A stretch of 64,000 nucleotides of DNA, taken from the NCBI RefSeq assembly GCF_947500325.1, contig NZ_CANMRQ010000001.1, positions 1 through 64,000 on the forward strand, given 5' to 3'. The notes beneath the pieces were generated by a model that searched no databases, was not told the DNA's origin, and saw nothing but the letters and a program-made list of their open reading frames with translations. This stretch comes from an uncultured Lacinutrix sp. (GTDB lineage: Bacteria; Bacteroidota; Bacteroidia; Flavobacteriales; Flavobacteriaceae). Within the stretch, counting starts at the first letter, position 1; every line of letters begins with the position of its first letter. Positions 28,310 through 41,933 of this stretch are shown here, piece after piece. The position numbers were made by a program, and so were the translations under genes.

Positions 28310-28381
28310 TCACGTAAGTAGGACTCGAACCTACAAATTTAGAAATGTTGCCTAATGTTTTTCCAATTAAACTATTACGTG
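28310..28381 (-). tRNA. tRNA-like gene with non-canonical anticodon loop (CAACATT; paralog of the tRNA-Cys unit)
   Basis: perfect 7-bp acceptor CACGTAA/TTACGTG, D GTTT/AAAC, T arm GTAGG-TTCGAGT-CCTAC; position 33 is A, anticodon ambiguous. Confidence 0.45.
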
Positions 28382-35105: not shown

Positions 35106-36568
<1,463 letters not shown>

Positions 36569-38432: not shown

Positions 38433-40265
38433 CTAGCTAAAGAGCTTTAAGAAACTATCTTTTTCTAAATTCTCCAAAGAGAAATCAAAGTCTGCTTCAT
38501 CTTTATAATCTGTAATCTCTGCACCTAAAGTTCTAACCAAATTATCAAATGATAACGGTTCGTTCCATTGCTGGTACAAGGCTTTAGTTGCTAATTTTGA
38601 TACTTCAGAATTACCAGAAACTCTGGTGTGACCTGCACCAAAATTTAATAACACAAAGCATTGCTTATCTTTTTTTGGAAGTAACATTCCTAAAATGGTT
38701 TGCTTCTGTACAGATTCACATTTAACATCTGCAAACAAATTGTTTGGATTCATCATATAATCTTTAGAGATTTTATCACCTTTACCAATAACAATTTTGT
38801 AACCACAATCTGTAGTCCCTGAGAACACGTTGTTTTGAACCAAAGTTGGTACATTTAAACCTTTATTAGCATACAAATACTCTACAGCTCCATTTGGAGC
38901 AGACGTAATATCTCCTGAATACATTAGGTTACCCTGTTGTTGGTTATATGTAGCATTCCAACCAATTTTACCAGCAATATTTAAACCAGATAAATCTAAG
39001 TCTCGCGCTCCCCATGCATCTTCCCAATAAATACCTACTGCCAATTTTTTACCATAAAAACGTGTCCCAGTAGGAATATTTCCTACATACATTTTTTCTG
39101 ATGTTGGCAAAGCATAGGTAATGTCCTCAGGAAAAAATAAACGCTTACCAGATAAATTAAAACGTTGTTTTAAATAGTTAAGTAAGAACTCATAATTTTC
39201 CTTAAACACTGTGTTTTCTATAACTGTACCCTTGTATTTACTAGCCTTACTTTTCTTTAAAAGATTAGCAAGGATATTATTTCTACTTACAACAGAAGTA
39301 GTATCAGATTTCACAAATGATTTACCGTTTCTAATTCTGTATAAAAAGGCATCTTGCCCTTGTTTTCTTGAATAGCAAGCAGACAAAGCCTTAAATAATG
39401 CAAAAGGCGTTGCGTTATCTAACCAATGTACATCTTTATCAGTTATCAATGTATTTGTAACATCATTTAACGGATTAGATACTAAAGGTTTGTGATACGT
39501 TTTAGATAGCTTACTAATTTTATTAATCGTTTTTGGAGCTTTGTTTTTAAATGCCAAAAACAAAGGTTTAAATCGATTAAATATCTCAGCAAGTTTTTCT
39601 AATCCAAAACTGTTAAACGCTTGTGTTGGATTGTATGAACTGTTTTTTATCAATTCAATTAACTCATCATTTTTGATTAATAAAGTAGAATCTGTAGCTC
39701 TATAGATAATGTATCTAAAAAACTCAACAGGATGCTCTGGATAAATATTATAATACTCTGCCAATTTTACAATCGCCTCTTTATTTCTAATATTTTCTTT
39801 ACCAGTAAATGTGTAACCTAATTCATCTACCAATACAATGATTAATTCGTCTACAGTATCTTCTTTTAAAGCCATACCAGATTTTAATAAAGCTAAACAT
39901 TTTTGCTTCATTATATCTGCAGAATATGCATTTATAACTTTATAGTTGAGCTTTACATTTGGAATATTTAAAATTTCTTCTGGAATATAAATGTCATCAT
40001 TAAAGTCACTTCCATAGGTTGACATATAGTGTTCTATTTGTCCTGCACACAATTCATATCTAGAGCTATTTTTTATTTTACTCCATGATTTGTGAAACGT
40101 TTTATTTAGATCATTACCATTTAATTTTTCAGCTTTAAAAAAAGTAATGATTCTGTCTTTTGCCCAAAGTGCATTTGGAGCTATGATATAGCCTTCATCT
40201 GAGATGTATGGCTTTTCGTTTGATGTTTTCGCTACTACAGCGTTAAATAATTTTAATGTATTCAT
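38433..40265 (-). CDS. large hypothetical protein
   Basis: 610 aa, no motif recognised. Confidence 0.45.
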   Translation of the reverse strand: MNTLKLFNAVVAKTSNEKPYISDEGYIIAPNALWAKDRIITFFKAEKLNGNDLNKTFHKSWSKIKNSSRYELCAGQIEHYMSTYGSDFNDDIYIPEEILNIPNVKLNYKVINAYSADIMKQKCLALLKSGMALKEDTVDELIIVLVDELGYTFTGKENIRNKEAIVKLAEYYNIYPEHPVEFFRYIIYRATDSTLLIKNDELIELIKNSSYNPTQAFNSFGLEKLAEIFNRFKPLFLAFKNKAPKTINKISKLSKTYHKPLVSNPLNDVTNTLITDKDVHWLDNATPFALFKALSACYSRKQGQDAFLYRIRNGKSFVKSDTTSVVSRNNILANLLKKSKASKYKGTVIENTVFKENYEFLLNYLKQRFNLSGKRLFFPEDITYALPTSEKMYVGNIPTGTRFYGKKLAVGIYWEDAWGARDLDLSGLNIAGKIGWNATYNQQQGNLMYSGDITSAPNGAVEYLYANKGLNVPTLVQNNVFSGTTDCGYKIVIGKGDKISKDYMMNPNNLFADVKCESVQKQTILGMLLPKKDKQCFVLLNFGAGHTRVSGNSEVSKLATKALYQQWNEPLSFDNLVRTLGAEITDYKDEADFDFSLENLEKDSFLKLFS

Positions 40266-40316: not shown

Positions 40317-40560
40317 AAATAGGAACACCTTTTACCTATTATTTTTTTAAAGACGAAGAGTAATTATCTTGTACCCTTTCGGGCAGCAAGTCGTAAATTT
40401 ATAGGAACTCTATATGTCTTTTATGACGAAGCGTAAATTAACCTCAAGCTCTTTCGAGCTCTGGAATCGAACCAGATTATAGGAACGCTTTGTGTCTTTT
40501 ACTAACGGAAAGTAATTTCTCCAATGAATGTTATAGGAACTTTCTGTGTCAGTAATTTAA
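40317..40560 (-). repeat. four degenerate tandem units beginning ATAGGAAC (minus strand GTTCCTAT), some carrying tRNA T-arm remnants
   Basis: units start near 40320, 40400, 40477, 40532; unit 2 contains CTGGTTCGATTCCAG on the minus strand. Confidence 0.5.
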
Positions 40561-40563
40561 TTG

Positions 40564-40676
40564 TAGTCCAGGTGGGACTCGAACCCACGACACACGGATT
40601 ATGAATCTATACAGGAACTTTTTTTTGCTGAAGGCGAAAAGTATTTTCGTTGCTCTACCTTCTGAGCTACTGGACT
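40564..40676 (-). tRNA. aberrant tRNA-like gene (113 nt) with perfect acceptor/D/T arms but a 46-nt insertion in the variable region and a non-canonical anticodon arm
   Basis: acceptor AGTCCAG/CTGGACT, D GCTC-AGAAGGTA-GAGC, T GTGGG-TTCGAGT-CCCAC; anticodon region ACGAAAATACTTTTCGC. Confidence 0.4.
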
Positions 40677-40810
40677 ATTTTTTTATTATGTTAAAGAACG
40701 TTGTACCTCTTACCAGATTCGAACTGGTACTTTCACATAACGTGAACAGATTGACTCTAAATGCGCTTCCCTACTATAATTTCGGTGCTTCTGCAAATTC
40801 TATTCGATAG

Positions 40811-41933
40811 CAAGCTTGTCACTAACGACATATTCAATCACTCCGTGGCTACGATTAAAAGTCTTTTACCACAGCTCTTCCTTTTAAGCTAAAGAGGCCT
40901 AATATTTTAAAAAGCGTTCTGAGAATACCTCCGCTTATAAACAAGCTTTCCTAGAATTATAGTTTACACTTTCTCTAGTTTTCCACGTGCTTCTTATTGC
41001 TTAGAGAATTACGTACTTGTTCGATGCCTTAATACATTACAACTGTTCGGCAACTTAGACTTGACTTGCATAGTGACTTTTGTCACGCTTTGCAATTACA
41101 AGGGTTGGCTCCCTCACCATTTATAAGCGTCCTCTTTTGAGGCGGCTTATTAGAATGTTCACCGCAAGACAAAGGTTTGCGACCTCCATCTCCCCATATA
41201 TTACAATGGGTTTAGGCAACTACTAACTGCTGTAATGTTCGAAGTCTTTTGCTTTTTACTCACCAACTGAGCAGTATCAAATTATGGTTTAGATACTAGG
41301 AATCGAACCTAGAAATAAAGTTTTGACCTTGGAAAAGGGCTTCGAAAATGGCTTCGTAGATTTTAGCCTACAAAATACCAACCTTTTCCATGCGTGTTTC
41401 CCAACACACCGTATGTTTAGCTACCGAATAGTTTCCTATCGGGTACCTATAATACTGCAATACGCTCCGTTAAATTGGATGATCTATACGTAACCTATTA
41501 CTACAACTTTTCCTGTTAATGTCTCCATTTCAAGCCTAATTAAATGTTAGCTATAAACCCTTATTTACCTCAGCGGTTGCCCCTTGTAAATAGAAATTTA
41601 TGTTAGTTGCTTGCTTACCTGTACTATACTCAAAAGAATACAGTCTCCATTTGCAGTGTCTGCAAATAGATTTATCCTTGTTACCAAGTTTATCTATGGA
41701 CGATAAGCCGCCCCATTATTTATAATAAATAATGATTTCTTTATATATAGAAGCTATAAATTTTCAGCTTCTTTTAATTTCAATGAACGTTTTTATTAAA
41801 CTCCACCAGCTTCAAAATCTGGTGGAGTACTACTTATAAAGTCTGATTCCAAAAGACTTTTAATTAATTACTCTGCAAATATTTTACACTATTACGCAAT
41901 GTTTTTGCGTAGTTAAAATGATTTATGAAATTT
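40811..41933 (-). ncRNA. 1.1-kb ORF-free, GC-enriched, hairpin-rich block; candidate large structured RNA (strand uncertain), containing a tRNA-like T-arm/acceptor with encoded CCA near 41285-41318
   Basis: no ORF of 60 aa or more in six frames inside a gene-dense island; local GC visibly above flanks; many imperfect hairpins. Confidence 0.3.
41866..41906 (-). promoter_or_regulatory. shared operator/promoter module (third copy) upstream of RNA ligase
   Basis: ACTACGCAAAAACATTGCGTAATAGTGTAAAATATTTGCAG on the minus strand. Confidence 0.5.

Follow-up and report, generated by a model that had tools for sequence, protein, structure and literature searches.

A candidate Y-RNA-like RNA with a tRNA-shaped module accompanies an unnamed protein and RNA-repair genes in flavobacteria and some phages

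We analyzed a 64,000-nucleotide (nt) stretch of DNA from an uncultured Lacinutrix sp. (contig NZ_CANMRQ010000001.1, positions 1 to 64,000, of assembly GCF_947500325.1), here called the window, which carries a 113-nt tRNA-like element on its minus strand (40564..40676). We lean towards a reading in which this element forms the first, tRNA-shaped part of a long structured RNA. The whole RNA would act as the scaffold or leader of an RNA-repair module, much like a Y RNA but with a partner protein other than Ro60. We are confident of the structural part of this reading. Its functional part is tentative, as both the partner and the function are suggested by gene linkage and by analogy. The conserved RNA always accompanies the gene for the partner protein, and usually that for an RNA-repair ligase, in flavobacteria and some phages.

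The Rfam tRNA model (RF00005) aligns to 40676-40564 on the minus strand with 48.3 bits (gathering score, 29; E value over the whole window, 2.9e-7), reproducing exactly the end points proposed in an earlier note on this DNA. The element contains a 7-bp acceptor stem (AGUCCAG/CUGGACU), U8 and A14, a D arm with GG (GCUC-AGAAGGUA-GAGC), an interrupted anticodon arm, a 5-nt variable loop, a T arm (GUGGG-UUCGAGU-CCCAC) with a UUCRANY loop, and a discriminator A; CCA is not encoded. The perfect acceptor and the canonical D and T arms described before are present in these sequences, with covariation in the acceptor and T stems. The canonical anticodon arm, with a continuous 5-bp stem and a 7-nt loop bearing a conserved anticodon, is absent, as 40 nt interrupt the stem. 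ARAGORN does not call the element in standard mode; when introns are permitted, it reports tRNA-Met(cat) with a 40-nt intron. Based on sequence and covariation, the 5' part (40648..40676, minus) comprises the acceptor 5' strand, U8 and A9, the D arm, A26 and the ACG of the anticodon stem. The 3' part (40564..40607, minus), assigned from sequence and ARAGORN, comprises GA, a UUCAUAA loop, UCCGU, the variable loop GUGUC, the T arm, the acceptor 3' strand and the discriminator A. The anticodon CAU lies at 40603-40601, within the UUCAUAA loop 3' of the insert.

Conservation of the fold was assessed in an alignment (A3) of 61 distinct tRNA-like relatives, with 500 shuffles and slid pairings as controls. 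In total, 99.3% of the cells are paired and two-sided changes occur in 15 of 27 pairs, values reached by none of the shuffles (0/500); the slid controls also remain far below. Covariation is seen in six of seven acceptor pairs, three of five T-stem pairs and all three of the top anticodon-stem pairs (alignment columns 28-30/97-99). In addition, a covariance model built here from the tRNA-like sequences (R1) gives the window element 109.4 bits and separates 70 insert-bearing tRNA-likes (82 to 127 bits) cleanly from ordinary tRNAs, which score at most 52 bits. Three relatives (L125, 3462-3701; L142, 3485-3795; L158, 3488-3797) carry two insert-bearing tRNA-likes, in tandem or in separate array units.

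The extra sequence is a 40-nt module (AAAAUACUUUUCGCCUUCAGCAAAAAAAAGUUCCUGUAUA; 40608..40647, minus) that splits the anticodon stem on its 5' side, following ACG, between tRNA positions 29 and 30. Its limits follow from the 40-nt intron called by ARAGORN (option -i) and from homology to downstream repeat units. This differs from the earlier proposal of a 46-nt insert between the anticodon and T arms, in which one reading of the anticodon region was a 6-bp hairpin with a 3-nt loop (CGAAAA-UAC-UUUUCG). Among the 61 relatives, that hairpin is paired in 64.6% of cells, versus 64.2% in shuffles, and its G-C pair occurs in only 8 of 59 sequences; since it is not conserved, the extra sequence cannot be placed between those two arms, and it runs from 40647 to 40608 instead. 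Inside the insert, a capped helix (ACUUU/AAAGU plus GCY/RGC; 40617..40642, minus) is paired in 100% of A3, with two-sided changes in two pairs. In 47 of the 61 sequences its innermost pair is U-G, as would suit an RNA encoded on the minus strand. The full layout reads AAAAU, then ACUUUU-C-GCC-UUCA-(A)GC-AAAA-AAAAGU, then UCCUGUAUA.

As the earlier note held, the element is neither a type II tRNA nor a tRNA with a known type of intron: the 40 nt lie in a stem, and they contain neither a group I core nor a bulge-helix-bulge. The group I core that had been raised as a possibility was looked for directly, and an Rfam search of the window gave no match to any group I intron family even at E values up to 10. 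The insert is present in all 70 tRNA-likes picked out by R1, its sequence is better conserved than the "exon" surrounding the anticodon, and it is homologous to the downstream repeat units (repeat families D2 and D6). By these sequence patterns, it appears to be a built-in functional arm that takes the place of the lower anticodon arm, not a spacer, junk or an ordinary intron.

The repeats downstream of the tRNA-like (40560-40317) had been described as a tandem array of degenerate tRNA fragments that ends at the element. The repeats are real and belong with the element, but they are stem-loops, only one of which carries a T-arm-like hairpin. They form four units that share the module with the insert. 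In these units, the stretch just before UCCUAU (four bases plus GU) pairs with a stretch of the following repeat (AC plus four bases), and the resulting helix is extended by a 3-bp RRC/GYY helix beyond an ANA/C internal loop. Perfect 6-bp helices are found in 217 of 303 units and comprise at least a dozen different sequences, including GAAAGU/ACUUUC, AAGCGU/ACGCUU, AAACGU/ACGUUU, AGACGU/ACGUCU, AGGUGU/ACACCU and AGGAGU/ACUCCU. Among 69 distinct units, 95.3% of cells are paired, compared to 79% in shuffles and 34 to 53% in slid pairings, with 138 double-change cells. Folding each repeat as a self-contained hairpin was also considered; it typically yields five of six pairs with a central mismatch, and the pairing between repeats was preferred.

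Under this inter-repeat pairing model, the units are P2 (40504..40550; GAC-ACA-GAAAGU / ACUUUC-C-GUU, loop UCCUAUAA...AAUU), P3 (40425..40496; GAC-ACA-AAGCGU / ACGCUU-C-GUC), P4 (40352..40418; GAC-AUA-UAGAGU / ACUCUU-C-GUC) and P5 (40284..40336; GGU-AAA-AGGUGU / ACACCU-C-ACU), all on the minus strand. Each loop starts with UCCUAUAA, continues with a variable insert and ends in AUU. In P3, the insert consists of a T-arm-like hairpin (40476-40460) and, 3' of it, a GNRA hairpin (40459-40448); jointly, the two hairpins resemble a permuted acceptor/T minihelix, and they covary between genera; that of P4 holds a GAAA-capped hairpin (40390-40368). P5 is the most widely conserved unit, and its stem covaries among relatives (AGGUG/CACCU, AGGAG/CUCCU, AGACG/CGUCU, GGGUG/CACCC, AGAAG/CUUCU). 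Rfam 15 holds no family for the array or its stem-loop unit.

Within this last unit, AUAGGUAAAAGG (40325-40345, minus) is near-invariant; among the relatives, it is missing only from viral contig L009. The AUAGG within it is complementary to CCUAU, which is present in every loop, and the sole variant (AUGGG, in L124) keeps the pairing through G-U. Judging from this complementarity, the segment could form an alternative hairpin or loop-loop contacts.

In the module common to the insert and the stem-loops, A-U and C-G pairs close one end of a helix, from which two strands depart, AUU on the 5' side and UCCUAUAA on the 3' side (N4GU-UCCUAUAA / AUU-ACN4). In the stem-loops, the loop insert connects the AUU and UCCUAUAA strands; in the tRNA-like, the tRNA body connects them, and a cap closes the helix at its other end.

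A different account would see here a decaying tRNA pseudogene with tRNA-fragment debris, for example integration leftovers, or would take the repeats for DNA-level iterons or transcription factor sites. The silence of standard ARAGORN on the tRNA-like, the T-arm-like pieces in the repeats (repeat family D7) and the mobile-looking surroundings, an island with tRNA arrays and a PcfJ-like gene, would fit such an origin, and the earlier note had itself allowed for a degenerate remnant. However, every stem, in the tRNA-like as in the units, shows compensatory changes across genera and phages, and the G-U pairs of both work on one strand only. The conservation extends to cyanophages whose homologous protein is about 31 to 34% identical, and exact copies of the repeat motif GTTCCTATAA are confined to this array within the 64-kb window. 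Since covariation across genera excludes both a decaying pseudogene and DNA-level repeats, this account is essentially refuted and we give it hardly any credence; the element is one module of a conserved RNA that is linked to a protein and to RtcB. The confinement of GTTCCTATAA to the array also rules it out as a genome-wide promoter.

The distribution of the RNA was examined in 80 species-representative genomes fetched for this purpose, and neighboring genes were counted at 88 loci. In all 80 genomes, the array lies at most 450 nt upstream of the gene for the partner protein, where two to six copies of GTTCCTAT occur, the last at about -60. An insert-bearing tRNA-like scoring at least 82 bits with R1 is present in 64 of them. 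A blastn search of the locus against 50,697 phage genomes gave no match. When viral contigs were scanned for the pattern, about 120 loci emerged, mostly chance matches or collagen-like coding repeats, and only eight of them are true relatives.

The cyanophages S-CRM01 and S-CBWM1 encode homologs of the partner protein with 31 to 34% identity. In S-CRM01 (L202, NC_015569), the homolog g174 (34% identity) lies inside the phage tRNA cluster. Five units of the same architecture precede it (L202, 4510-4965), with lower stems such as GCU/AGC, GUC/GAC, GGC/GCC and GAU/AUC, and one further unit follows its stop codon (L202, 6835-6880); all are unannotated. Unit 2 contains a circularly permuted tRNA-like inside the stem-loop, in the order T arm, UUCG-capped acceptor stem and D arm, and aligns over its full length to the Rfam YrlA model with 35.9 bits (E value of 3e-6), where the curated threshold is 69 bits. 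No Ro60 gene is annotated in the approximately 12 kb around g174. The permuted copy indicates that tRNA body and module helix form one structural object that exists in two connectivities. In S-CBWM1, a single P5-like unit precedes the partner homolog.

The partner gene (38433..40265, minus) is the open reading frame (ORF) directly downstream of the array and encodes a 610-amino-acid protein. Its structure is predicted with confidence (predicted local distance difference test score, 87) as a novel helical domain of about residues 1 to 370 followed by a TerD-fold beta-sandwich of about residues 375 to 545. The helical domain gives weak matches that include pentatricopeptide-repeat (PPR) and other helical-repeat RNA-binding proteins. 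Searches of Pfam, PHROG and NCBIfam gave no match for the protein. It has more than 2000 homologs, all without a name and mainly on chromosomes of Flavobacteriia; the closest occur in Winogradskyella and Bizionia (84 to 91% identity), followed by Algibacter, Kordia, Aquimarina, Tenacibaculum and Chryseobacterium. Further downstream lies RtcB1 (35106..36506, minus), a divergent RtcB-family RNA ligase (Pfam PF01139, E value of 4e-37). Of the 88 loci, 73 have a homolog of RtcB1 no more than 4 kb from the partner gene, and 35 have RlaP.

The tRNA-like could also be a true intron-containing tRNA(CAU) of the Met or Ile2 type, in which an endonuclease would recognize the AUU/UCCUAUAA module and cut at both junctions, and RtcB1 would join the halves. 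In silico, excision of the 40 nt from the window copy restores a perfect 73-nt cloverleaf with the stem ACGGA/UCCGU and the loop UUCAUAA. A canonical tRNA is regained in this way only in the Winogradskyella clade (seven sequences), six of which ARAGORN then calls Met(CAT). The regained loop is YUCAUAA in six of the seven and UUCAAAA in one, and the regained stems are compensated (ACGGA/UCCGU, GCGGA/UCCGC, CCCGG/CCGGG, CCUGA/UCAGG). The 3' junction is fixed at 9 nt (10 in one sequence) beyond the GU of the module, and an RtcB ligase is a standard neighbor. RtcB is the family of the archaeal and metazoan splicing ligases.

However, in more than 50 sequences outside this clade no consistent anticodon loop can be regained, and close relatives are called as Leu, Trp, Gly and others. 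The 5' junction lies at a distance of 3 to 5 nt, depending on the sequence, and the site of the insert moves between 28/29 and 29/30. At the junctions, stretches of 3 to 5 nt and of 9 to 10 nt are single-stranded beside the covariation-supported capped helix of 5 to 6 bp, an arrangement without a bulge-helix-bulge, and there is no group I core. In addition, the module is also conserved in stem-loops that contain nothing to splice, and in S-CRM01 its helix continues the permuted tRNA-like, making excision meaningless there. No endonuclease candidate was found among the neighboring genes scanned, and no EndA-like domain among the ORFs scanned between 19 and 54 kb. Because the features of known intron types are missing, the module is reused elsewhere and no consistent anticodon is recovered outside the clade, splicing is treated as a minor rival, and we judge it improbable. 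The same low probability applies to the narrower version in which a protein endonuclease of Winogradskyella and Bizionia, possibly the helical-plus-TerD-fold protein, would remove the module and RtcB1 would ligate the halves into a working tRNA(CAU). If true, this would be the first enzymatic, that is, non-self-splicing, tRNA splicing pathway in bacteria, and the supply of tRNA(CAU) would hinge on an RNA-repair ligase.

Returning to the scaffold or leader that we favor, the minus-strand transcript would run from about 41900 through a GOLLD RNA, the tRNA-like and the four stem-loops to the start codon at 40265. Each copy of the module may be a binding site for the 610-amino-acid protein, giving several sites per RNA, with contacts presumably made at the AUU/UCCUAUAA junction. 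RNase P and RNase Z could find processing sites in the body with its tRNA shape and in the minihelix mimic of P3. By analogy with YrlA, the tRNA mimics might recruit the tRNA-directed repair enzymes of the island, namely, RtcB1, RlaP and a CCA-adding enzyme. As the last stem-loop abuts the start codon, protein binding at this site would probably feed back on the translation of the protein itself. The CAU anticodon hairpin of the Winogradskyella clade would be a relic of a tRNA(CAU) ancestor, and some enzyme or toxin may still recognize it.

Several observations weigh against this scheme. The perfect, covarying anticodon stem and YUCAUAA loop of the Winogradskyella clade are not needed by a scaffold and are left unexplained. 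The partner is not a Ro60/TROVE protein, and we know of no TerD fold that binds RNA. The tRNA-like is absent from 16 of the 80 genomes and from six of the eight viral contigs that retain the array, which makes it an accessory module. Finally, viral contig L021 (8112-10400) has a three-unit array 3' of the partner gene and a small ORF, with none 5', which weakens the case for autoregulation. It follows that the order of RNA and gene is not fixed, and this arrangement argues for the RNA as a partner of the protein and not a leader alone.

The last point bears on the possibility that the RNA is a purely cis-regulatory 5' leader, whose stem-loops and tRNA-like would respond to the encoded protein, to uncharged or damaged tRNA or to cleavage by a ribotoxin and would set the expression of the downstream operon, without any ribonucleoprotein role in trans. 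We consider this rather unlikely. It is in line with the position of the P5-type last unit, which in each of the 80 genomes stops about 18 nt short of the start codon, as does the sole unit of S-CBWM1. A conserved operator-like repeat and a promoter-like box upstream, together with the alternative hairpin that the invariant AUAGGUAAAAGG could form with CCUAU, also agree with a leader. By contrast, the array of L021 is wholly 3' of the gene, S-CRM01 has an extra unit beyond the stop codon, and three to six repeated units with tRNA mimics exceed the needs of known leaders. No terminator or antiterminator was predicted between array and gene, in a sigma-70 promoter and terminator scan that is uninformative for a Bacteroidota host.

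The likely transcription start region lies at 41800..41911 (minus); it is shared with relatives, and its promoter function is suggested by sequence. It starts with a perfect inverted repeat, TACGCAAAAACATTGCGUA (TACGCAA-N5-TTGCGTA; 41911-41893), followed on the 3' side by a AAAATATTTGCA box of the AAnaTTTG type (41885-41874) and two leader hairpins (41859-41839 and 41828-41800). The inverted repeat and the box are conserved 5' of the module in at least eight other genera or species and are probably a repressor operator overlapping a Bacteroidota-type promoter. The same elements occur 5' of the tRNA-like in L122, L124, L127, L128, L131-L133 and L161, and in relatives they directly precede it. 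In the window, L123 and L126, a GOLLD RNA is inserted between the leader hairpins and the tRNA-like (131.9 to 136.9 bits, E values of about 1e-35). The Rfam-modeled part of the window copy spans 40913..41390 on the minus strand (RF02032, 131.9 bits, E value of 1e-35; gathering score, 150), and the alignment stops at 40913, with 236 nt left before the tRNA-like further downstream. GOLLD is missing from most relatives of the tRNA-like and array, and the tRNA-like accompanies the partner gene instead; GOLLD is context, outside the conserved module. It belongs to the same transcription unit as the tRNA-like, in an RNA-repair operon of a flavobacterial chromosome and not in a prophage.

The variable linker of this GOLLD RNA (41258-41312, minus) contains a circularly permuted tRNA-like piece. 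Its T arm (41312-41296) and D arm (41272-41258) flank a stub of 4 bp that bears a 13-nt loop (41295-41275). Near the 3' side of GOLLD, at 40730-40703, there is one more T-loop hairpin. The GOLLD 5' region (AUUAUAGG) is complementary to the CCUAUAAU loops, a match that L123 and L126 do not share and that was taken as chance. The motif ACGTTC(T/A)TT(A/G)AA occurs about 12 nt 5' of both GOLLD and the tRNA-like (41779-41790 and 40690-40701, minus) and also before a genuine tRNA in L128; it may be a processing or punctuation signal, with weak enrichment in the window. For the "punctuation" motif ACGTTCTTTAA, no clear enrichment was found in the window.

The surrounding island (28143-54676) encodes two RlaP, a CCA-enzyme-like gene, RtcB1, an R2K ATP-grasp, the 610-amino-acid protein, Rnl2, a PF04308 RNase H-like protein, an RNase T-like exonuclease and a cluster of TPR, PrfH-like and RtcB2 genes. 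It also contains the PcfJ-like gene and 22 AT-rich tRNA genes in two arrays. The TPR/PrfH-like/RtcB2 cluster agrees with the published PrfH-RtcB2 module (PMC6514570, PMC9304027), and long tRNA arrays linked to rtcB have been described before (PMC8421152). One tRNA of a four-tRNA array (28310-28381, minus; "Cys" according to ARAGORN) has the anticodon ACA, with an unusual A34.

Literature searches returned no published description of this RNA or its partner protein, and the RNA represents a structured class new to Rfam. To our knowledge, RtcB ligases are common in bacteria, few of their natural substrates and partners are known, and Ro60 with Y RNA is the one well-studied RNA partner system among them. 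The locus points to a second protein family, unrelated to Ro60, with a Y-RNA-like tRNA mimic that has been multiplied into an array of motif-bearing stem-loops, in islands with spare tRNAs and repair enzymes. This makes it a candidate for the organization or regulation of tRNA repair in Bacteroidota and their phages. It also offers a natural case of one RNA fold with two connectivities, as a normal and a circularly permuted tRNA-like, and places GOLLD, itself of no known function, in a concrete operon context. The system is accessible in culturable hosts (Chryseobacterium, Winogradskyella) and in the cultured phage S-CRM01.

Among known systems, YrlA (RF02553, in rsr-yrlA-rtcBA) is the natural reference, in which a tRNA-like domain is joined to a stem that binds Ro60 (Rsr); YrlA has been proposed to act for Ro60 in the way suggested here for the tRNA-shaped body and the minihelix mimic (PMC4201824). 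Like YrlA, the RNA described here combines canonical T and D arms and a stem resembling an acceptor in one tRNA-like domain, and its anticodon arm is replaced by a stem with a conserved protein-binding module, for which binding is predicted in the window family. The YrlA architecture of T arm, acceptor-like stem and D arm plus a stem at the anticodon position is found in both the window family and its S-CRM01 relative. Both RNAs are encoded beside a partner protein and RtcB, and both also occur in phages. Unlike in YrlA, the partner combines a novel helical domain with a TerD fold, not TROVE plus vWA domains, and the window copy is not circularly permuted and has true tRNA termini. Its match to the YrlA model is 14 bits (E value of 8), below the curated threshold of 69 bits. 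The stem motif differs as well (GNCGAAN0-1G in YrlA versus N4GU-UCCUAUAA / AUU-ACN4), and the module is repeated in three to five further stem-loops that Y RNAs lack. Neither a nearby Ro60/TROVE gene nor GNCGAAN0-1G in the stem, as described for YrlA (PMC4201824), was found at the window locus.

Noncanonical archaeal tRNA introns, such as those at 29/30 that depend on EndA and RtcB, resemble the insert in being short and in lying in the anticodon stem, not the loop. Their excision gives a perfect tRNA, as it does here in one clade, and an RtcB-family ligase gene is close by. In contrast to these introns, the window insert has no bulge-helix-bulge (3-nt bulges, 4 bp apart), is highly conserved and is reused outside the tRNA; the host is bacterial, no splicing endonuclease was seen among the neighboring genes, and most relatives have no anticodon loop to restore. 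Group I tRNA introns are at least about 200 nt long, contain a P3-P8 core and interrupt the anticodon loop, whereas the 40-nt insert lies in the stem.

GOLLD RNAs with linked or embedded tRNAs (RF02032; PMC12286853, PMC6582537) are comparable in that the window copy lies 236 nt from GOLLD in a tRNA-array island and the GOLLD linker also holds a tRNA-like piece. They differ in that most relatives of the tRNA-like and array have no GOLLD and the tRNA-like tracks the protein gene. Protein-titrating RNAs of the CsrB/RsmZ type likewise display one short single-stranded motif on several stem-loops, but their motif, partner and context are unrelated, and the hairpins described here, for which binding is predicted, carry tRNA mimics in an RNA-repair operon. 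The tRNA-like processing signals of mitochondrial tRNA punctuation and MALAT1 mascRNA are cut by RNase P and RNase Z, which frees the flanking RNAs. They share with the window element a tRNA-shaped structure within a longer transcript, a likeness that would extend to function by analogy only. Set against these systems, what is new here, with the Y RNA parallel drawn by analogy, is a Y-RNA-like tRNA mimic in an RtcB context that has a different partner protein, a nonpermuted topology and a multiplied, predicted binding module.

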